Shown here: piece by piece, positions 1 through 64,000 of the stretch
How the letters are laid out: the number at the start of each line of letters is the position of its first letter
How positions within the stretch are numbered: the first letter of the stretch is position 1
Sequence record: MK373794.1
Source of the DNA: Escherichia phage vB_EcoS_HdK1
DNA length: 64,000 nucleotides
Direction: 5' to 3' (one strand)
Program-made: the position numbers and the translations under genes
Notes under the pieces: model-generated
What the model was told of the DNA's origin: nothing
The model's input: the letters and a program-made list of their open reading frames with translations, nothing else
The model's database searches: none

Positions 1-339
1 ATAAAGGGGTCTCGTGGGGTCGTCAGTAGACAACTCAAAAATAAAAAATCTTTATAAAATTTATATAAATACACACATATACACATTTTTACCTTATTTT
101 TCATGCACTTACCTCCTTTCATTTCGTATATTAAGCGACAATATACGAGCAATATAAGAAATATTTGTTGCGCAACAACGAGGCGCTCACAAGCTCGCGC
201 ACGCGCATAATGCGGGCACGCGGTCTAACACAAAAGAAAATTGAATTGCAAGCGATTTTTGCTGAGGTAACTCTCGAAGCGAAAGCGATTTGCGAGTTTG
301 AAATTTTGTAGCCCGAAAACGATTCTATTTTATGGTATA

Positions 340-660
340 AATGTCGGATTTTTCGGTGAAAGGTGGCTTTTCGGTGAGGTTGGGTGGCTGGGATCGGTGT
401 AACTGGTAGCCCATAAAGCGAAAATAGCCGCGAAAACGGGGCACGCAGCGCGATTAAATGGTTGGATCAGTGTAAGGGTGGCGGTGAGGGGGCGAAAATG
501 CCGCAAAATCGCTTACAGGGATGCAGGGAGTGGGCCGCTGTAAGGGCGTATAAGGCGATTAAATTGGAGTCTATGGTAATGTATGGAAGATGGATTTAGG
601 CTCTTAGAGCGCGAATGGTGGAGCTATGGGTGAGGAATATGTGGTCAGCAGGGTAGCGCG
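340..660. repeat. Non-coding G-rich region with reiterated CGGTGAGG / TGTAAGGG-like short motifs
   Basis: No ORF of 60 aa or more; repeated motifs such as cggtgaaagg, cggtgagg, cagtgtaaggg, ggcggtgaggggg, gctgtaaggg, gggtgagg read directly in the sequence. Confidence 0.5.
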
Positions 661-675
661 GGAGGTTATGCAGGT

Positions 676-714
676 ACAAAAACGAAAGCGCCCCGTTGGA
701 CTTCAACAGGGCGC
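676..714 (-). terminator. Rho-independent terminator candidate downstream of the leftward small-gene operon
   Basis: GC stem gcgccc / gggcgc (688..693 and 709..714) with 15-nt loop; on the minus strand it is followed by a T-rich tract (revcomp of 676..687). Lies just past the stop of CDS 738..986. Confidence 0.4.
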
Positions 715-737
715 GGATTGTATAATGCTTTTAGAAG

Positions 738-986
738 TTATTTACTAGTTAATAATACCGCCCAGGTATTATCTGGAAGCGTACCAACTCCGAGTATCTT
801 AAACTGAAGCGACTTGTTCTGCATGTTGTAGTTGTCGAGTAACTCCTGGGCAGCCGCAGCAGCGTTCGCTTCACCGTTCAGGTTGTAGTCGTTTGCAGTT
901 ATTGCACACATACCGAGACCGACCGCTTTGAAGCGCATACCTTTGGATTGAGTCGGTGCAAGTGCTTTAACATGGATAGCGTTCAT
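738..986 (-). CDS. hypothetical protein (82 aa)
   Basis: ORF with GGAGA Shine-Dalgarno-like sequence upstream of the ATG; balanced composition. Confidence 0.6.
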   Translation of the reverse strand: MNAIHVKALAPTQSKGMRFKAVGLGMCAITANDYNLNGEANAAAAAQELLDNYNMQNKSLQFKILGVGTLPDNTWAVLLTSK

Positions 987-1015
987 ATTATTTATCTCCG
1001 TTACAATTTGAAAGG

Positions 1016-1279
1016 TTAGCAGTTTTTTAACAGGTTGATGAAGCCCACCAGCGTGGACGCTGTTGCAACCAGGCGGCCCATAGTATGCAGTTCCGCGTAA
1101 ACTTTACCGTCGTCAAACACAGTTAAATAAACGTTAAGACCATTGCAACGGACGCGATATTTGCGCGAGTTATTACCAAAAGTTTCCAGCTCTGCGGTGA
1201 TAGTCGCAAGATTAGCTATACGTTTGCCGATAATGCGGCGAGTGATAGTGGACTGGTTTAATACTGTAGACATAATCAT
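1016..1279 (-). CDS. hypothetical small protein (87 aa); paralog of 2588..2893
   Basis: ORF with AGAGGAA RBS; N-terminal motif QSTITRRIIGKR shared with the protein at 2588..2893 (QSQITKRIIGKR). Confidence 0.6.
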   Translation of the reverse strand: MIMSTVLNQSTITRRIIGKRIANLATITAELETFGNNSRKYRVRCNGLNVYLTVFDDGKVYAELHTMGRLVATASTLVGFINLLKNC

Positions 1280-1341
1280 TTCCTCTGTTAACTATGCGAA
1301 GTGCATATTATTGCCCACTGTTACTATGGGCAATGTATATG

Positions 1342-1506
1342 TCACTCAGCGGACACATATTCTAACGCTTCTGATAGTGTAGCGAAGTAACCATCGCTCA
1401 CCAGATTAATAGCGTACTCAAGTTGATCGCGGGTCAGGTTGCGAAACTTGTTACGGATGTGATAGCAACGACCGCGATAAATAACCTGGAAATAGTTGCG
1501 TTCCAT
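1342..1506 (-). CDS. hypothetical small protein (54 aa; ORF-track version 1342..1662 is probably over-extended)
   Basis: Internal ATG at 1506 is preceded by AAGGGGA RBS; the longer ORF overlaps the well-formed gene 1517..1762 in another frame. Confidence 0.4.
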   Translation of the reverse strand: MERNYFQVIYRGRCYHIRNKFRNLTRDQLEYAINLVSDGYFATLSEALEYVSAE

Positions 1507-1516
1507 AATTATCCCC

Positions 1517-1762
1517 TTATGCAACGATGAACGCGTAACCGCTTTGATCCGGGAGTTCACCACCGGAAAGAATTTCAAACTCAACGCCCGCTTTATCGCT
1601 GAACTTTTTGATAAGCTCTTCCGCTGCGGCGCGGTGGTTGCCGTAAACACCAAGATCGTCACGCCACGTGATAGTCAAGGAGCCGTTCCAACCTGTTGCT
1701 TTTACGCGCGGGTTACGGGTGGCAGTCGGGTTCATGAATTTTGTGATGATAGCTTGAGCCAT
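1517..1762 (-). CDS. hypothetical protein (81 aa)
   Basis: ORF with GGAG RBS upstream; protein-like composition. Confidence 0.55.
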   Translation of the reverse strand: MAQAIITKFMNPTATRNPRVKATGWNGSLTITWRDDLGVYGNHRAAAEELIKKFSDKAGVEFEILSGGELPDQSGYAFIVA

Positions 1763-1767
1763 GATAA

Positions 1768-1953
1768 TTACTCCGGTAAAATTACAGTGACGTTAATATT
1801 TGCAAGGCGAGCGCACTCGCGGAAACCTTTTACATAAGCATCCATTTCGTCATAGGATGCGAAAGTTGCGTCCGGGACTGGTCCGTTGTTAATATTCACG
1901 CAATATTCGTGTTCGTCCAGGTCAACCCAACAAGTCAGAACGATAGTTTCCAT
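1768..1953 (-). CDS. hypothetical small protein (61 aa; start at internal ATG)
   Basis: ATG at 1953 preceded by GGAGGG RBS; ORF-track version extends to 1986. Confidence 0.45.
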   Translation of the reverse strand: METIVLTCWVDLDEHEYCVNINNGPVPDATFASYDEMDAYVKGFRECARLANINVTVILPE

Positions 1954-2031
1954 ATTATTTGCCCTCCGTATAATACAGACCCGCAACTATTGGAGCTCCG
2001 AAAACTAAGAAAGCTAATAAATAGAACATAA

Positions 2032-2511
2032 TTAGTTACCCCCTTTATTGTTGAGCCCGTTGAATTTACGCCATGCGTAGAATTCAATCGTTGCATTATT
2101 AATATTCCAACCATTAGCTTTCGCAAGGTCACGGACGTTACCAATAGTTGGCACACCATCAGGCAACATATTATCCAGGGCATTCCAAACGTCTGCGCAT
2201 TTACCTTTAATCGGGCGACGAACCCCGTTGCGCGTTTCGCTGCGCGTTTTGCTCTTGGCTGGAGCGACCGGAGCTTGTTGTGTGGTCACTTCCACGACAG
2301 TCGCTTTATCAGCTTCCACCAGATCGCTAGCTGCCTTATTAACCGCGCTTTCGCTGTACCAGTAGCGACCACCGTCTTCGTGCGGTTCCTGGTGAATAAA
2401 GCTATTTGCTGTCGCAGTGTCCACATCCAGAACCTTTTTTAAGGCACGGCGAGCGTTAGACATAGTGGCGAAGAAGCGAGCGTCTTTTGCTACGCGAGTG
2501 ATAGTAACCAT
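2032..2511 (-). CDS. hypothetical protein (159 aa)
   Basis: ATG at 2511 with GGAGA RBS; ORF-track version 2032..2526. Confidence 0.55.
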   Translation of the reverse strand: MVTITRVAKDARFFATMSNARRALKKVLDVDTATANSFIHQEPHEDGGRYWYSESAVNKAASDLVEADKATVVEVTTQQAPVAPAKSKTRSETRNGVRRPIKGKCADVWNALDNMLPDGVPTIGNVRDLAKANGWNINNATIEFYAWRKFNGLNNKGGN

Positions 2512-2587
2512 TGTGAATATCTCCATGTTGTTCTAGCGGATTGCTAGTGGGAGCCCACTGTTACAATGGGCAACCATTAGCACGCTA

Positions 2588-2893
2588 TTATTGTTGAATA
2601 GCTTTATCTATCATTGCGATGAAGCAGAACACAGACCAAAGGCTATTCGCTTGGCATACTGCGCGACCATACATTACGCTATAAGAGCTGACAGTACCGT
2701 CCTCGTTAATGCGAATATATAACGCGGTGCTGGAATACTTTTCGTTGCCCGGGAGCATTACTAAATACTCGTCGAAACCCCAATCCCCGTCGACTTTTTC
2801 CGCAGTAAGGCCCAGTTGGTGCAGTCGCTTGCCAATAATGCGCTTAGTAATCTGAGATTGGGACATGGAACGCGGTAAGTAGATAATGGACAT
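2588..2893 (-). CDS. hypothetical small protein (101 aa); paralog of 1016..1279
   Basis: ATG at 2893 with AGGGAGA RBS; shares the ITKRIIGKR N-terminal motif with 1016..1279; ORF-track version extends to 3010. Confidence 0.55.
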   Translation of the reverse strand: MSIIYLPRSMSQSQITKRIIGKRLHQLGLTAEKVDGDWGFDEYLVMLPGNEKYSSTALYIRINEDGTVSSYSVMYGRAVCQANSLWSVFCFIAMIDKAIQQ

Positions 2894-2968
2894 AATGCAA
2901 TCTCCCTTCGGGTGAGGCGGGCGCGGAACCCGTGTCCCGCTTAACAACCCCCTTAACCCTACACAGTT

Positions 2969-2997
2969 ATAGTATGACAACGGGGTATCAGATGCAA
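2969..2997 (-). promoter_or_regulatory. sigma70-like promoter candidate driving leftward transcription of 2893..738
   Basis: Minus strand reads TTGCAT-N17-TACTAT (revcomp of 2992..2997 and 2969..2974). Confidence 0.25.
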
Positions 2998-3073
2998 CTA
3001 TTATCTGCAATATTTTAGAACTTTTTTAGTTGTGTTTCATAATAATAACATCCGGGACTATGCGGTAGATGGT

Positions 3074-3147
3074 GTGCCGGAAATACCAGGTAGCGCGAGC
3101 GTGCCGAAAATACCAGGTAACAGCACGCGCCGAACATACCAGGTAGC
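3074..3147. repeat. Three 21-bp direct repeats (iteron-like), consensus GyGCCGrAmATACCAGGTArC
   Basis: gtgccggaaataccaggtagc (3074..3094), gtgccgaaaataccaggtaac (3101..3121), gcgccgaacataccaggtagc (3127..3147); spacing 27 and 26 bp; non-coding region. Confidence 0.6.
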
Positions 3148-3535
3148 ACATACATAGACAGCACATAGTGGGCAGGTGGATAGTAACAGATGCAATTATA
3201 CTGGACGGTACAGTATAGTCATGTAATAGATAGCATACTAATTAAATAAAAAATAATAACGCGTGTAACAATAAACAACGTTACAGTAGAGCGCGCAACA
3301 GTCACATGACGTAACAATCACCTCACTGACGATCACGGGACGTTATAGTAACGCCGCGGGGCGGCTCTTAGATCTCTGCCAAGGATTCTAGACGTAAACA
3401 TTGAATCGCCACTAGACTATTTACATCACAACCTCACTCCTCACACAATAATACATAGAATTTAAATCCGTATATAAATACTCGAGATAGTATCTACATA
3501 TTCGAGGATGAGTGCTCAATCATTGTAGGTTATAA

Positions 3536-6478: not shown

Positions 6479-6990
6479 TTGGTATTGTTGCACCTTGGAT
6501 ACCACTTGTCATAATTGTTATTCTAGCCAACTGGGCTTATGACAATGCCATAGAATCAGCTAGAAAGGAGGGTTTCGATGCCGGTGTGTCGTACCAAAAA
6601 GAAACTCAGAAAGCGGTTGATTTCGAGGAGGAGAAACGAAGAGCGTATGAGAAAGACACTATCGAACGTCAGTACAGATCTCGTATTGAATCTTTGGTTG
6701 CGATCTTAATAATTATCGCGCTACTAATGACAGGTTGCACAACGAAATCGCAACCGTCCGTAAGTACCTCGGTGACGCTACCGGCCCTCAGCCCGACAGC
6801 AAGACAACCGCCCAGATCGCCCGTGTGCTCACCGAGCTGTATTCAGAAAGCGTCACAGAATACAGACAAGTGGCAGAAGAGGCTGAAAAGTATCGTATTG
6901 CCGGCGAGCAGTGCGAACTACAGTATGATGCAATGCGAAATCCGCGTAAAGAAAAGTGATAAACTGCAAAGTCCTTGCCGGGTTGCGTAA
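6460..6990 (+). CDS. spanin-like locus (N-terminal TM domain; lipoprotein-box segment; coiled-coil C-terminus in another frame)
   Basis: N-terminal TM helix IIGIVAPWIPLVIIVILANWAY; signal-plus-lipobox LVAILIIIALLMTGC followed by Pro-rich tail; an overlapping frame (6690..6959) encodes a charged coiled-coil segment. Confidence 0.4.
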   Translation: MFLRRIIGIVAPWIPLVIIVILANWAYDNAIESARKEGFDAGVSYQKETQKAVDFEEEKRRAYEKDTIERQYRSRIESLVAILIIIALLMTGCTTKSQPSVSTSVTLPALSPTARQPPRSPVCSPSCIQKASQNTDKWQKRLKSIVLPASSANYSMMQCEIRVKKSDKLQSPCRVA

Positions 6991-13012: not shown

Positions 13013-13573
13013 ATGTCTAAAATTCTGTCAGCTCCGATGCTTAATTTGCGAGCTACCAATTCAATTCTTCTGTCTGCTGTTCGTCGTGGTGCAATCACTG
13101 AACTTGCAGATGTTATCGTTCCAGAGATCTTCGTACCGTATGTGCAGAACCGCACAACTGAAAAGTCCCGACTGATCCAGTCTGGTGCTATTGAGATTTC
13201 TGAGCGTCTTAACGCTGCATTGATGGGTGAAGGTACTACCTTTAACCAGCGTTTCTTCAAAGATCTGGATCGTGACGAAGAAAACGTTTCAAGCGCAAGC
13301 GATTCAACCGATTCTACTCCTGGTGGTATCAAATCTGGGCGTGAAATTCAGATCCGTCTGTCCCGTAACCATTCCTGGGGTTCTGCGGACCTGCTGGACA
13401 GCCTGATCTCCCCGGACCCGCTGGATGCTATCATTAACTTAGTGGCAAGCTACCGTCAGAGCCGTCTGCAACGTGCATTCGTTGCAACTGTCAGTGGTGT
13501 GTTTGCTATGAACGCCGCTGCTCTCCGGTTGGTTCCGGTGATAAGAAGTCTACCCATGTTCAGAACGATATGA
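13013..13573 (+). CDS. major capsid protein, N-terminal fragment (gene interrupted by frameshift)
   Basis: ATG at 13013 with GGAG RBS; ORF terminates at 13573 while the capsid-like sequence continues in the -1 frame. Confidence 0.7.
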   Translation: MSKILSAPMLNLRATNSILLSAVRRGAITELADVIVPEIFVPYVQNRTTEKSRLIQSGAIEISERLNAALMGEGTTFNQRFFKDLDRDEENVSSASDSTDSTPGGIKSGREIQIRLSRNHSWGSADLLDSLISPDPLDAIINLVASYRQSRLQRAFVATVSGVFAMNAAALRLVPVIRSLPMFRTI

Positions 13574-14130
13574 CCCATGATATCTCTGGTTCATCCTTCA
13601 CTGATGGTGTGACTAACTTCAACCCGGCCGGTGTTATCCTGGCGGCTGGTACTATGGGTGACTCCCTGAACGACCTGTCCATGATGATGGTTCACAGTGT
13701 GGTTTACCAGCGTATGCAGCTGATGAACCTGATCGACTTCATCCCGGATGCCCGTGCTGAAGTAATGATCCCAACTTACATGGGCCGTGAAGTTATCGTT
13801 GATGATATGATGCCTCACGATAGCGGTAAGTACGAAACCTGGCTGGTCGGTCGTCGTGGTGCATTCCAGTTAGGTGTTGGTTCACCGAAAGTTCCTGTTG
13901 AAACTGAACGTAAACCTGCGTCCTACAAAGGTGGCGGTTCTGAAATCCTGTTCCACCGCTGGGAAAACATCATTCACCCTGTCGGTCACGCATGGGTTGG
14001 TACTGCTGCTGAAGGTGGCCCGGATAACGCCGCTCTGAAGACTGCTGCCAACTGGGCTCGTGTATTCCCTGAGCGTAAACAGATTAAGATTGCTCGCCCT
14101 GATCACTCGCGAACACGCTTAATGCTTTAG
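13570..14130 (+). CDS. major capsid protein, C-terminal fragment
   Basis: Open frame continues upstream of 13570 into the previous ORF (GSGDKKSTHVQND...); combined length about 370 aa fits an HK97-fold capsid protein. Confidence 0.7.
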   Translation: MTHDISGSSFTDGVTNFNPAGVILAAGTMGDSLNDLSMMMVHSVVYQRMQLMNLIDFIPDARAEVMIPTYMGREVIVDDMMPHDSGKYETWLVGRRGAFQLGVGSPKVPVETERKPASYKGGGSEILFHRWENIIHPVGHAWVGTAAEGGPDNAALKTAANWARVFPERKQIKIARPDHSRTRLML

Positions 14131-19114: not shown

Positions 19115-19506
19115 GATCCCGCGAAAAGCTAATTGATCACTTACTGCTCGAATGGCAATTGCACAGTTGCCCGCCGGGCAGTAAGACTCCAACAATTAAA
19201 CATCTCCAGCACGTTAAAAAAGTCACTGGTAAGACTCCCTCCTTACTAGCAAAGTACGAATCCAGCTCCGTACCACACGAACTCAGATACATTTACAAGT
19301 TATTTCTTGACTTTTATAATGGTGATAAATTCAGTTACAGCGAATTTAACGCCTGGCAAGATTATATAGGTGTAGAACTTGATTTCAGAGAGCGTGAACT
19401 AATTCGGGCCAGATTTGTCTTGAACGGCAAGCATTTGATATTAGGCGTCAACAAGAACTTATGCAACACGCTCAGACCAATAATAAAGGAGGTAAATAAT
19501 GGCTGA
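19108..19506 (+). CDS. tail assembly chaperone frameshift extension (G-T-like product)
   Basis: -1 frame relative to 18686..19114, open across the slippery site to 19506; ORF-track portion 19159..19506. Confidence 0.6.
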   Translation, partial: FLRSREKLIDHLLLEWQLHSCPPGSKTPTIKHLQHVKKVTGKTPSLLAKYESSSVPHELRYIYKLFLDFYNGDKFSYSEFNAWQDYIGVELDFRERELIRARFVLNGKHLILGVNKNLCNTLRPIIKEVNNG

Positions 19507-27507: not shown

Positions 27508-27798
27508 TTATTTACAACCTTCAGACCAACCAATACGGTTCATAGCCGGTGAGCAATCAGGTTTGACTTTTTTACCTTTCATCCACTCAGCTTTAGCTTT
27601 ACCAGCGGTAGTACCTTCGTAGATGGAAGTCTGGTGCTCAATGTTACTTACTCCACCAGTATGCCCGCCTAATGATGAACCACTACCAGGACCACCAGCT
27701 CCACCATTACCTGGACCACCAGTACCACCGGAAGGACCAGTCGCGTAAGCAAAAGTAGCAGTCATAGAAAGGATAATGGCGCAGATTAAAGTCTTCAT
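27508..27798 (-). CDS. small secreted glycine-rich protein encoded antisense between tail tip and tail fibre genes
   Basis: ATG at 27798 with AAGGAG RBS; signal peptide MKTLICAIILSMTATFAYA; mature part Gly-rich with two C-terminal Cys. Confidence 0.55.
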   Translation of the reverse strand: MKTLICAIILSMTATFAYATGPSGGTGGPGNGGAGGPGSGSSLGGHTGGVSNIEHQTSIYEGTTAGKAKAEWMKGKKVKPDCSPAMNRIGWSEGCK

Positions 27799-44139: not shown

Positions 44140-44337
44140 CTAACGGGAAAGAACTACAGAACTTTCGCTACAGCATAGAATTCCATACTCATGAAGACGT
44201 TGAAAGTTTGGATGTTTGGCTAATACCTGCATCCGATCGTAATCAATTAAGACGTACATATTAATCCTTCCACCATTCGGGCCCACAATACATTCCACGT
44301 AGTTCTTCACGCATGTAATTTTCAAACTCGTCTTCAA
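44140..44337 (-). CDS. hypothetical protein, N-terminal fragment of frameshifted gene 43535..44337
   Basis: MYVLIDYDRMQVLAKHPNFQRLHEYGILCCSE then stop; continuation in another frame. Confidence 0.4.
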   Translation of the reverse strand: MKTSLKITCVKNYVECIVGPNGGRINMYVLIDYDRMQVLAKHPNFQRLHEYGILCCSESSVVLSR

Positions 44338-54696: not shown

Positions 54697-55746
54697 TAAC
54701 TTAATAACTTCGTTCATTCTCTCAATATCTACCAAATAACACTTCATTCTCGGTGGTGTAAACTCTGCGCCGAAGAAATTTGAAAAGTCCATTGGCCTCA
54801 TCTCGGTAAGAACTTCCATAGACATCAAACCATAGATTGTATTGTCTATGACCTGTAGGATGTTGTCATTTCTTGTCTGTTTAAAAGCCTTGAACTGGCG
54901 ACATACTGTGCATAGATCACTCCTTGTGACAATAAATGCGTCCTTAAACATGGGAAACCGTTTATATACACCAGCTTTAACTTCACCATCCAAGAACTTC
55001 TTAATGGAGTTCAGCATTATCTTCTCACGACTTGTACTGTCCGTAGAACCAATCTGCCCACTGTTACGCTTCTCTAAGAAACGCTCGTTACCCTGATCGA
55101 TAAATGACTCAGCCCAACGATAATGTTCCATAGTGACAACAGGACGCTCACTGTTATCTGCAACAGCAAGAAGAGAAGCTATACGCAATACCTTCAACGC
55201 CTTCCTTGTGTACATCTGACGAATTACTTCGTCTTGCACCTGCTCACCATCATTGCCGCTGTTCAGGAACTTCGCAACAATATTATCAAGATTATCAAAC
55301 GCTTCGTGTACCTCTGCTTCCATTTCAACATAACACGGAGCAGTCCCTGACATAATACGCACAGCTTGTTTATAGATAGCTCCAATAGTGCGCAGTATTG
55401 CTTCTGGATATTCCAGGAGCATACTCTTATTCATCAATGGGCGGTTAGCTGTACATTCCCATGCGATAATACGGGACATGAAACCACTCGACATCATGCG
55501 GTCATCTACGTTCCCGTAAAATTCATCTGGTGTTGTTTCACCTGCAAAACTATACGCCTTAACCTTACCGCCAGCAGTCGTATTATCTTTACTAGAGTGC
55601 TTTGAACCACCAGAGAAAGCATAGAAATGCCCCTTGTCATAAAGGGAAAGCATTTCATCCATAATGTCTTTAGCTTTACCGACTTCCATCTTACCGTTAC
55701 GGAAAAAATGCACCGACTTCAGTCTTATAGTTAATGGATGAGCCAC
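54694..55746 (-). CDS. primase-polymerase / helicase-like replication protein, C-terminal fragment (multiply frameshifted gene spanning 54694..57260)
   Basis: 350-aa ORF continuous in sequence with upstream fragments; frame break next to an 8-A homopolymer at about 55881..55888. Confidence 0.45.
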   Translation of the reverse strand: MAHPLTIRLKSVHFFRNGKMEVGKAKDIMDEMLSLYDKGHFYAFSGGSKHSSKDNTTAGGKVKAYSFAGETTPDEFYGNVDDRMMSSGFMSRIIAWECTANRPLMNKSMLLEYPEAILRTIGAIYKQAVRIMSGTAPCYVEMEAEVHEAFDNLDNIVAKFLNSGNDGEQVQDEVIRQMYTRKALKVLRIASLLAVADNSERPVVTMEHYRWAESFIDQGNERFLEKRNSGQIGSTDSTSREKIMLNSIKKFLDGEVKAGVYKRFPMFKDAFIVTRSDLCTVCRQFKAFKQTRNDNILQVIDNTIYGLMSMEVLTEMRPMDFSNFFGAEFTPPRMKCYLVDIERMNEVIKL

Positions 55747-55767
55747 AAGACATAACGGACGTATCCA

Positions 55768-56352
55768 TTATGACATCCTTGCGCAATGCAGCATCAGACG
55801 CATAGGTACTTGTATCCAAGACACGTTCGATACCAAATATCTGCTGACCGTCTTGACCGCCATAATTGGATACTTGAGAAAAAAAAGAATAGTTTCAATG
55901 TTGGAGCGAAACGCTTCTTTACCAATACCAGAACGTGCAATTAGTACAAAGTAGTTATTCAAACCACTTCGTGTGACTGTGTTCCACGCCTTACCGCACA
56001 TACCACTAAATAAAGCAAGCGCAGACAGAATACTAATGTCTTTAATAGGCAACAAGCTCGCTTTATACATATTACGCGCAACCTCGCCCATAAAGCCCGG
56101 AGGCCAAGCCAAACCGTCTGCCTGCTCTTCAGTGTAATTACCATCTGTAGTCAACACTTCTTCAGGTGGGCGTTCTGGTGTAGTTGCTTGACGTAGTTTT
56201 TCCGTGCGCTCTATAGCTGCATTAACGTTATTCTGAACTATCTGCATAAGTCCCATAGATTTAACATGGGCATCGTAGCGATAGTTGCGAATCATTCTAT
56301 CCAGGTGGTACGGACGTTTAATTTTTTCACCAGGCATACGACGGGGAATCAT
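55768..56352 (-). CDS. primase-polymerase / helicase-like protein, central fragment
   Basis: Segment ...NYFVLIARSGIGKEAF then out-of-frame tail; overlaps the upstream fragment in another frame. Confidence 0.4.
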   Translation of the reverse strand: MIPRRMPGEKIKRPYHLDRMIRNYRYDAHVKSMGLMQIVQNNVNAAIERTEKLRQATTPERPPEEVLTTDGNYTEEQADGLAWPPGFMGEVARNMYKASLLPIKDISILSALALFSGMCGKAWNTVTRSGLNNYFVLIARSGIGKEAFRSNIETILFFLKYPIMAVKTVSRYLVSNVSWIQVPMRLMLHCARMS

Positions 56353-56474
56353 CGTAACGGCTACTCATTGGTGAATACATGAATAGACGTCTTACCTGGA
56401 AATTGTACTTACTCTTAAAGCAAAGAAAGTCAATTAATGCAAATTCTGCTTCAGACTGAGAAGGGAAACAACGT

Positions 56475-56855
56475 TCACCGATTAGAAGTATCAACTTCTT
56501 CAGCTCTCCAACGACCCTCCCATAGCTGCTTAAACAATGTTCCGTTTTCTTGTTCGCACAACTGAATATAGACATCCTGGTCTTCCATTGCATATGGGTC
56601 GTTACTAAAATCTTCTTCAGTAAGTTCCAGCATTTGGAAGCCATCAGACTCATTAATCTCACTCATCTCAGACATAAGTTGGATGAATGAGATTAGCGAT
56701 ATACCCTTCGCTTTCACTGCCTGGAGCACCAGACACAGTGCGCGGGAGTAAAGTAACATCCCAGTGATCCCCTGTACAGATAATAAAACGATACTGGGAA
56801 TACACTTCCACACCGTCACGGCGCTTACCAGCCTGAGGGGATGGAATAAATCCAT
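56475..56855 (-). CDS. primase-polymerase-like protein, internal fragments (at least 3 frames used between 56327 and 56871)
   Basis: Protein-like segments alternate between frames, e.g. TEISRSGDGLHTWIYSIPSGW then AGKRRDGVEVYSQYRFII then SEMSEINESDGFQMLELTEEDF. Confidence 0.35.
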   Translation of the reverse strand: MDLFHPLRLVSAVTVWKCIPSIVLLSVQGITGMLLYSRALCLVLQAVKAKGISLISFIQLMSEMSEINESDGFQMLELTEEDFSNDPYAMEDQDVYIQLCEQENGTLFKQLWEGRWRAEEVDTSNR

Positions 56856-56894
56856 GTGTGCAACCCATCACCGCTTCTGGAAATTTCCGTATAG

Positions 56895-57260
56895 CTATGG
56901 AAACGATTCAACAATCTTCTTATATCGCTCACCAGCAACTTTCTTTTCCATTTCAGACATGGTATCTTTAATGTCCATGTCGATACAACAGAACGGGTCA
57001 CTTGGAAGTAGATAGAAACCTAAACGCAAGTTATGACCAATCTCGTTATAATAACGAACGCAGCGTTCAGCATCTTCAAAAGACATAAGTAAATGCAGGT
57101 TAGACGGTTTCTTATCATTACCGTCTTTACGAAGTGGGACCATATCCCCTAAATCATCGTCCCATACATAAGGTTGTTTTTCTGATGATGTACCCGGATG
57201 GAAACCGCAGACAGCCCACTGTTCGTATTGTTTAATTTCTTGAGGAAAAAGTTCCAGCAT
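56895..57260 (-). CDS. primase-polymerase (AEP superfamily) N-terminal fragment
   Basis: Prim-pol-like pattern EQWAVCGF...KKP...LMSFEDAER...GHNLRLGFYLLPSDPFCCIDMDIKD (DxD motif); downstream SGDGLHTW motif in a shifted frame. Confidence 0.5.
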   Translation of the reverse strand: MLELFPQEIKQYEQWAVCGFHPGTSSEKQPYVWDDDLGDMVPLRKDGNDKKPSNLHLLMSFEDAERCVRYYNEIGHNLRLGFYLLPSDPFCCIDMDIKDTMSEMEKKVAGERYKKIVESFP

Positions 57261-60692: not shown

Positions 60693-63600
60693 ATAAAGGG
60701 GTCTCGTGGGGTCGTCAGTAGACAACTCAAAAATAAAAAATCTTTATAAAATTTATATAAATACACACATATACACATTTTTACCTTATTTTTCATGCAC
60801 TTACCTCCTTTCATTTCGTATATTAAGCGACAATATACGAGCAATATAAGAAATATTTGTTGCGCAACAACGAGGCGCTCACAAGCTCGCGCACGCGCAT
60901 AATGCGGGCACGCGGTCTAACACAAAAGAAAATTGAATTGCAAGCGATTTTTGCTGAGGTAACTCTCGAAGCGAAAGCGATTTGCGAGTTTGAAATTTTG
61001 TAGCCCGAAAACGATTCTATTTTATGGTATAAATGTCGGATTTTTCGGTGAAAGGTGGCTTTTCGGTGAGGTTGGGTGGCTGGGATCGGTGTAACTGGTA
61101 GCCCATAAAGCGAAAATAGCCGCGAAAACGGGGCACGCAGCGCGATTAAATGGTTGGATCAGTGTAAGGGTGGCGGTGAGGGGGCGAAAATGCCGCAAAA
61201 TCGCTTACAGGGATGCAGGGAGTGGGCCGCTGTAAGGGCGTATAAGGCGATTAAATTGGAGTCTATGGTAATGTATGGAAGATGGATTTAGGCTCTTAGA
61301 GCGCGAATGGTGGAGCTATGGGTGAGGAATATGTGGTCAGCAGGGTAGCGCGGGAGGTTATGCAGGTACAAAAACGAAAGCGCCCCGTTGGACTTCAACA
61401 GGGCGCGGATTGTATAATGCTTTTAGAAGTTATTTACTAGTTAATAATACCGCCCAGGTATTATCTGGAAGCGTACCAACTCCGAGTATCTTAAACTGAA
61501 GCGACTTGTTCTGCATGTTGTAGTTGTCGAGTAACTCCTGGGCAGCCGCAGCAGCGTTCGCTTCACCGTTCAGGTTGTAGTCGTTTGCAGTTATTGCACA
61601 CATACCGAGACCGACCGCTTTGAAGCGCATACCTTTGGATTGAGTCGGTGCAAGTGCTTTAACATGGATAGCGTTCATATTATTTATCTCCGTTACAATT
61701 TGAAAGGTTAGCAGTTTTTTAACAGGTTGATGAAGCCCACCAGCGTGGACGCTGTTGCAACCAGGCGGCCCATAGTATGCAGTTCCGCGTAAACTTTACC
61801 GTCGTCAAACACAGTTAAATAAACGTTAAGACCATTGCAACGGACGCGATATTTGCGCGAGTTATTACCAAAAGTTTCCAGCTCTGCGGTGATAGTCGCA
61901 AGATTAGCTATACGTTTGCCGATAATGCGGCGAGTGATAGTGGACTGGTTTAATACTGTAGACATAATCATTTCCTCTGTTAACTATGCGAAGTGCATAT
62001 TATTGCCCACTGTTACTATGGGCAATGTATATGTCACTCAGCGGACACATATTCTAACGCTTCTGATAGTGTAGCGAAGTAACCATCGCTCACCAGATTA
62101 ATAGCGTACTCAAGTTGATCGCGGGTCAGGTTGCGAAACTTGTTACGGATGTGATAGCAACGACCGCGATAAATAACCTGGAAATAGTTGCGTTCCATAA
62201 TTATCCCCTTATGCAACGATGAACGCGTAACCGCTTTGATCCGGGAGTTCACCACCGGAAAGAATTTCAAACTCAACGCCCGCTTTATCGCTGAACTTTT
62301 TGATAAGCTCTTCCGCTGCGGCGCGGTGGTTGCCGTAAACACCAAGATCGTCACGCCACGTGATAGTCAAGGAGCCGTTCCAACCTGTTGCTTTTACGCG
62401 CGGGTTACGGGTGGCAGTCGGGTTCATGAATTTTGTGATGATAGCTTGAGCCATGATAATTACTCCGGTAAAATTACAGTGACGTTAATATTTGCAAGGC
62501 GAGCGCACTCGCGGAAACCTTTTACATAAGCATCCATTTCGTCATAGGATGCGAAAGTTGCGTCCGGGACTGGTCCGTTGTTAATATTCACGCAATATTC
62601 GTGTTCGTCCAGGTCAACCCAACAAGTCAGAACGATAGTTTCCATATTATTTGCCCTCCGTATAATACAGACCCGCAACTATTGGAGCTCCGAAAACTAA
62701 GAAAGCTAATAAATAGAACATAATTAGTTACCCCCTTTATTGTTGAGCCCGTTGAATTTACGCCATGCGTAGAATTCAATCGTTGCATTATTAATATTCC
62801 AACCATTAGCTTTCGCAAGGTCACGGACGTTACCAATAGTTGGCACACCATCAGGCAACATATTATCCAGGGCATTCCAAACGTCTGCGCATTTACCTTT
62901 AATCGGGCGACGAACCCCGTTGCGCGTTTCGCTGCGCGTTTTGCTCTTGGCTGGAGCGACCGGAGCTTGTTGTGTGGTCACTTCCACGACAGTCGCTTTA
63001 TCAGCTTCCACCAGATCGCTAGCTGCCTTATTAACCGCGCTTTCGCTGTACCAGTAGCGACCACCGTCTTCGTGCGGTTCCTGGTGAATAAAGCTATTTG
63101 CTGTCGCAGTGTCCACATCCAGAACCTTTTTTAAGGCACGGCGAGCGTTAGACATAGTGGCGAAGAAGCGAGCGTCTTTTGCTACGCGAGTGATAGTAAC
63201 CATTGTGAATATCTCCATGTTGTTCTAGCGGATTGCTAGTGGGAGCCCACTGTTACAATGGGCAACCATTAGCACGCTATTATTGTTGAATAGCTTTATC
63301 TATCATTGCGATGAAGCAGAACACAGACCAAAGGCTATTCGCTTGGCATACTGCGCGACCATACATTACGCTATAAGAGCTGACAGTACCGTCCTCGTTA
63401 ATGCGAATATATAACGCGGTGCTGGAATACTTTTCGTTGCCCGGGAGCATTACTAAATACTCGTCGAAACCCCAATCCCCGTCGACTTTTTCCGCAGTAA
63501 GGCCCAGTTGGTGCAGTCGCTTGCCAATAATGCGCTTAGTAATCTGAGATTGGGACATGGAACGCGGTAAGTAGATAATGGACATAATGCAATCTCCCTT

Positions 63601-64000
63601 CGGGTGAGGCGGGCGCGGAACCCGTGTCCCGCTTAACAACCCCCTTAACCCTACACAGTTATAGTATGACAACGGGGTATCAGATGCAACTATTATCTGC
63701 AATATTTTAGAACTTTTTTAGTTGTGTTTCATAATAATAACATCCGGGACTATGCGGTAGATGGTGTGCCGGAAATACCAGGTAGCGCGAGCGTGCCGAA
63801 AATACCAGGTAACAGCACGCGCCGAACATACCAGGTAGCACATACATAGACAGCACATAGTGGGCAGGTGGATAGTAACAGATGCAATTATACTGGACGG
63901 TACAGTATAGTCATGTAATAGATAGCATACTAATTAAATAAAAAATAATAACGCGTGTAACAATAAACAACGTTACAGTAGAGCGCGCAACAGTCACATG
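60693..64000. repeat. Window-end exact duplication, copy 2 (identical to 1..3308); contains duplicate copies of the small minus-strand early genes
   Basis: Same as copy 1; all ORFs at 61430..63702 duplicate those at 738..3010. Not re-listed individually. Confidence 0.9.

Follow-up and report, generated by a model that had tools for sequence, protein, structure and literature searches.

A frame break in the major capsid gene of Escherichia phage vB_EcoS_HdK1 is probably an indel error in the genome record

The major capsid (head) protein gene in the record of Escherichia phage vB_EcoS_HdK1 (MK373794.1) changes reading frame partway through its length. Is this break an error of the sequence, a genuine mutation, or a site at which the phage recodes its message? 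We analyzed a 64-kb stretch of the record (64,000 nucleotides; hereafter the window), which is a complete siphophage genome of the 9g-like type (genus Nonagvirus in the subfamily Queuovirinae). Membership of Nonagvirus is indicated by nucleotide identity and synteny with its members, and by the presence of the dG+ gene cluster. When the capsid region was searched by megablast, 19 near-full-length matches were found among deposited phages, the top match being Escherichia phage vB_EcoS_HdSG1 (MK373795) with 98.3% identity; in a whole-window blastn, almost everything was aligned to HdSG1 at 94-98% identity. The dG+ pathway is encoded in full (DpdA, FolE, QueD, Gat-QueC and QueE), with protein identities of 85-99% as examined by tblastn.

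Two features of the genome outside the capsid region are described here for completeness. A direct terminal repeat of ~3.3 kb is present in two copies, at 1-3308 and 60693-64000, arranged as in HdSG1 and with the right copy containing the window end. The copies are 100% identical over 3308 bp, so that a comparison between them gives no internal measure of error rate. The sole long stretch strongly diverged from HdSG1 is the tail fibre/collar region (29513-30778 and 29944-31548), where protein identity is 57%; this divergence probably represents exchange of a host-range module.

The capsid gene and its relatives

The capsid gene occupies 13013-14122 on the plus strand, with its true stop codon (TAA) at 14120-14122, and is one gene broken by three private insertions. 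According to the ORF listing and a three-frame translation, frame 0 starts from the ATG at 13013, follows the relatives as far as codon 170 (..FAMNAAA), and ends at a premature TGA at 13571-13573, cutting the product to 186 aa. From PVGSGDKK.. on, the relatives' sequence continues in the -1 (= +2) frame, where a second ORF extends from 13570 to 14130 in a frame that is open already from 13438. The gene is consequently split by the insertions into two 186-aa ORFs, and the switch to the -1 frame that the original prediction had placed inside 13500-13575 is present in the sequence.

The lesion itself was located by a five-way DNA alignment together with blastn at 15 loci. At 13520-13528, the window has gctgCTCTccgg, whereas every relative has gctgCTccgg; that is, CT is tandemly duplicated to CTCT at 13521-13524, where the Ala codon 170 meets the Pro codon 171, and this 2-nt duplication leaves the downstream frame at -1. 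The break had been assigned to ccggttggttccggtg, a conserved plus-strand coding sequence (P-V-G-S-G-D) at 13525-13540. This assignment was close, but the lesion lies 1-4 nt 5' of that segment and outside the 16-mer, which follows the lesion directly and is unaltered; the relatives carry the same 16-mer, differing by synonymous or conservative SNPs alone. The description of the site as a non-homopolymer agrees with the dinucleotide duplication found here. Two further private insertions on the plus strand had been overlooked. One is an in-frame GTC at 13850-13852 (GTCGTC to GTCGTCGTC), which adds one Arg (VGRRGAF vs VGRGAF). The other, seen in the alignments, is a single C at 14097-14099 (CC to CCC), which causes a second frameshift, changes the C-terminal LITREHA to PDHSRTRLML and shifts the stop codon to 14128-14130.

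Deletion of the CT and the C in silico yielded a 368-aa protein with 97-99% identity to the 367-aa major head proteins of the relatives. This corrected protein matched phrog_247 ('major head protein') end to end with an E value of 4.8e-105, residues 27-366 being aligned to profile positions 4-343 of 351 across the junction, and it scored 27.8 bits against PF20036 (Gp13-like), for which the cut-off is 26.4. The corrected product is an ordinary Nonagvirus major head protein of the HK97-fold family of Queuovirinae. Two additional profiles, phrog_19632 and phrog_15288, matched residues 29-168 and 207-365 of the corrected capsid, respectively; such separate families for the N- and C-terminal halves suggest that split capsid calls recur in other deposited genomes of the group.

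We next compared the locus with relatives and public collections. Of the 15 aligned relatives, four are GenBank phages and six are IMG/VR contigs; the remaining five are metagenome contigs, which encode an identical portal protein. The CT, GTC and C insertions were absent in all 15, each of which has an uninterrupted 367-codon ORF as examined by blastn. The identical portal protein was found on eight metagenome contigs, and the adjoining 367-aa capsid gene is unbroken in all of them. No exact match to the CT insertion allele was obtained among the contigs of IMG/VR, the JGI metagenomes or the GTDB genomes, while six IMG/VR viral contigs matched the wild-type allele; similarly, neither capsid half-protein had an exact record in the protein or contig collection. 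More widely, a capsid homologue was detected by tblastn in 699 phage records, and in 695 of them at least 80% of the query was covered in one place. The best 60 of the 699, down to ~53% identity, each gave a single aligned piece. Private substitutions in the capsid gene were also informative: four of five fall on the third base of a codon as read in the relatives' frame, three of them beyond the break, indicating that selection acted on the gene in its unbroken frame until very recently.

Private indels across the genome

Using the full genomes of HdSG1, JenP2 and SE1 as references, we found 22 small indels that set the window apart from all three. Four more (15133, 15813, 19408 and 28196) are backed by one or two references together with frame breaks in tblastn. 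The approximately 26 events are located at 6701, 13521, 13850, 14097, 14845, 15133, 15813, 19408, 20281, 21443, 28196, 37500 and 42778, and at 44147, 48506, 52428, 55879, 56343, 56482, 56681, 56837, 56901, 59167, 59985, 60237 and 60341. They consist of 24 insertions and only two deletions; the insertions include 17 of a single base, four of 2 nt, and one each of 3, 4 and 5 nt. The earlier remark that shifts elsewhere are mostly +1 is therefore in line with the single-base insertions that make up 17 of the 26 events. Note that the capsid site is not the only 2-nt insertion, the others being at 19408, 44147 and 59985. Nearly all of the indels are not multiples of 3, and nearly all duplicate an adjacent base or unit. 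A 15-nt in-frame deletion relative to HdSG1 was also seen at 27694 inside a short repeat (ACCAGCTCCACC..); unlike the other indels, it looks like natural repeat-number variation.

A tblastn search of the window with the HdSG1 proteome showed that these private indels break 13 or more conserved genes. The reading frame is changed in the genes for the Rz-like spanin, the capsid (twice), gp55 (twice), the head-tail adaptor, gp63, the tape measure protein (twice), the side tail fibre, DpdA, Sak4, two hypothetical proteins of the replication module, the primase-helicase (several times) and a terminal hypothetical protein (three times). The genes split in the window are single ORFs in HdSG1 and JenP2. 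The primase-helicase gene (54697-57260, minus strand) contains six private insertions, the densest cluster in the genome (five As at 55879, and one base each at 56343, 56482, 56681, 56837 and 56901), and this cluster may reflect a region of low coverage or one that is difficult to read. In the DpdA gene (37493-37578, minus strand), a private G is inserted at 37500. If this insertion were true, the phage DNA would be unmodified; more likely, it is another error of the same class. Private substitutions look natural, with 290 transitions among 352. With regard to the references, the RefSeq annotation of Salmonella phage SE1 (NC_042025) divides the tape measure gene and a tail protein into two parts each and the primase into three, and that record is another error-prone or frameshifted Nonagvirus record.

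The capsid change is thus private to one record, absent from close relatives and from public collections, and the same record has many similar frame-breaking indels in essential conserved genes. By these testable signs, which are those of an indel artefact, the break is almost certainly not a real feature when judged from sequence comparison. Specifically, we consider it very likely that the capsid frameshift arose as an indel error of base calling or assembly in a Nonagvirus genome sequence of low accuracy, in which the CT dinucleotide would have been called twice at 13521-13524. The real phage would almost certainly have one intact capsid gene of ~367 codons, as in every relative. If the break is an error, the true DNA at this site would read GCTGCTCCGG, and the intact gene would give a capsid of ~40 kDa with the peptide AMNAAAPVGSGDK spanning ..NAAAPVGSGDK... 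The judgement of the original prediction that the break was probably an error is borne out by an insertion that is private, by two more in the same gene and ~23 more genome-wide, and by the lack of a recoding signal at the site. In annotation, the two 186-aa ORFs are best joined into one major head protein and the record treated as containing errors; 12 or more other split genes in the window call for the same caution.

Sequence motifs around the insertions

The errors may be systematic and tied to 7-deazaguanine (dG+) modification of the native DNA. Among the 64 trinucleotides, GAA showed the strongest enrichment in the 9 nt downstream of the indels (16 of 26 sites; background 0.13, p ~1e-8). 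In the 9 nt upstream, the strongest enrichment was that of TTC, the reverse complement of GAA (12 of 26, p ~5e-5). The mirror arrangement of GAA and TTC was not enriched (3 of 26 and 0 of 26). Most insertions, on either strand, can be described as a longer G run ending in GA or GGC, a longer A run after that G, or a duplicated unit containing it. On the minus strand, the capsid insertions CT and GTC correspond to GA/AG and GAC, respectively; at the CT site, the true 5'-CCGGAGCAGC would have been read as CCGGAGAGCAGC, the duplicated unit being GA/AG. Note that this site is outside the commonest layout, 'TTC..[ins]..GAA', and fits only through the minus-strand GA in its duplicated unit.

An unmatched test of whether the motif G lies inside the indel tract was confounded by G/C richness, since GG, GC and CG also gave p values of ~1e-3 to 1e-5, and it was replaced by a run-matched control. 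In this control, which was matched for runs and bases, 14 of 17 events were motif-positive, where 7.7 would be expected (p ~0.0014). Private indels of HdSG1, JenP2 and SE1 showed neither an association with GAA/TTC nor a bias toward insertions, and were mostly paired insertion/deletion alignment noise in diverged segments.

These motifs can be compared with what was reported for related phages. In CAjan, a related Seuratvirus, DpdA inserts preQ0 in GA and GGC motifs (PMC7544227), and in phage iggy GA alone was given as the motif (PMC10484667). In phage 9g, dG+ replaces 25-27% of G 'in an unknown motif' (Olsen 2023, PMC10484667), and a restriction survey of 9g revealed no apparent dG+ motif (Tsai 2017, PMC5567051). 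In the window, 26.5% of Gs precede A and 3.9% begin GGC; the former value is consistent with the 25-27% dG+ measured in 9g if the insertions are a footprint of the modification. Our literature search found no report of modification-induced assembly errors.

Taken together, we tentatively propose, at slightly short of even odds, that the ~26 private insertions, the capsid CT included, are a footprint left by 2'-deoxyarchaeosine (dG+) in the template DNA. In that case, the insertions would mark G in GA (especially GAA) and in GGC on either strand, and Nonagvirus DpdA would share its GA/GGC motifs with the DpdA of Seuratvirus CAjan. The link to modification is statistical and partly post hoc, as it was seen in part before being tested, and as such we hold it at no better than about even odds. 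Our conclusion about the capsid break stands with or without it. The main competing explanation is that the indels are random sequencing noise independent of modification, such as generic long-read or pyrosequencing homopolymer errors. Most events do extend a run of one to three identical bases, which is a classic technical error, and the GA/GGC test is in part confounded by G-rich context, as the GG, GC and CG controls indicate. However, an unbiased 3-mer scan placed GAA downstream and TTC upstream at the top with the mirror arrangement absent, and significance was retained in the run-length-matched control, so that we consider random noise the less likely reading, though far from negligible. 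Under random noise, the capsid break would still be an artefact, and the deazaguanine link would be lost. If motif-linked errors are confirmed, they would serve as a warning of systematic insertions at GA/GGC in native deazaguanine-modified phage DNA, and also as a cheap indirect readout of the Nonagvirus modification motif.

Mutation, recoding and comparison with known systems

The CT duplication could alternatively be a genuine mutation, present in a defective genome or in a minority variant; the capsid fragment would then be truncated at 186 aa. The duplication is truly present in the sequence as given, and replication slippage does create two-base tandem duplications. The same molecule, however, would also need the second capsid frameshift as well as breaks in the tape measure, adaptor, primase-helicase, DpdA, Sak4 and other genes. 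Nonagviruses are virulent and were propagated for sequencing, and with 13 or more conserved genes broken such a phage would form no plaques and could not be propagated. Moreover, the 24:2 bias toward insertions and the association with motifs resemble a technical signature, while the substitutions look natural. We therefore regard a genuine mutation as improbable.

Far less probable still is programmed recoding, in which a ribosomal -1 (or +2) shift near 13521 and a +1 shift near 14097, or slippage of RNA polymerase, would produce a full-length capsid. The downstream frame is indeed open and codes for the remainder of the capsid, but an indel error predicts the same. The only place where a ribosome could shift is the 133-nt overlap at 13438-13570 on the plus strand, where frame 0 and frame -1 are both open. 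No X_XXY_YYZ slippery heptamer was found there in any phase, nor a homopolymer of four or more or an A/T run. The predicted RNA fold of 13515-13620 was -25.8 kcal/mol, compared with an average of -23.5 for shuffled sequences (z = -0.64), giving no sign of a stable stimulatory structure downstream. One gene would furthermore need two different shifts, the second (14097) in the opposite direction. The two-frame layout was seen in none of the 15 close relatives and in none of the 60 best more distant homologues among the 699 homologous loci, indicating that there is no conserved recoding site. As the break lacks every testable hallmark of a programmed frameshift, recoding is effectively refuted by comparison at the level of sequence. 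Recoding and a defective genome, both of which had been flagged for verification, hence find no support in the evidence. A compensated frameshift, in which the three insertions sum to 6 (+2, +3 and +1), was rejected because frame 0 meets a stop 50 nt past the first insertion.

Among known Nonagviruses, the head protein genes of 9g (YP_009032376), JenP2 (YP_009216943), SE1 (YP_009613548) and HdSG1 (QBQ81029) share 94-98.6% DNA identity with the capsid gene of the window. They are found at the same genomic position, with the scaffolding protein gene on one side and gp54 on the other. The relatives have a single 1104-nt ORF, whereas the gene in the window has three private insertions and an altered C-terminus.

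With the lambda G/GT tail assembly chaperone and the C-terminal capsid extensions of some phages, the locus has only an outward resemblance in common, namely overlapping 0/-1 ORFs in a structural gene. Unlike these programmed -1 frameshifting systems, the site in the window has no slippery sequence, stimulatory structure or conservation, and a shift there would need ~100% efficiency in addition to a second, opposite shift. A parallel to the proposed modification-linked errors may lie in systematic base-calling errors at modified bases, as exemplified by Dam/Dcm-associated nanopore consensus errors. Errors of the Dam/Dcm methylation type are typically substitutions, whereas those in the window are insertions. 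The likeness is that the indels of the window concentrate at a short strand-symmetric motif, the same as the target motifs of CAjan DpdA.
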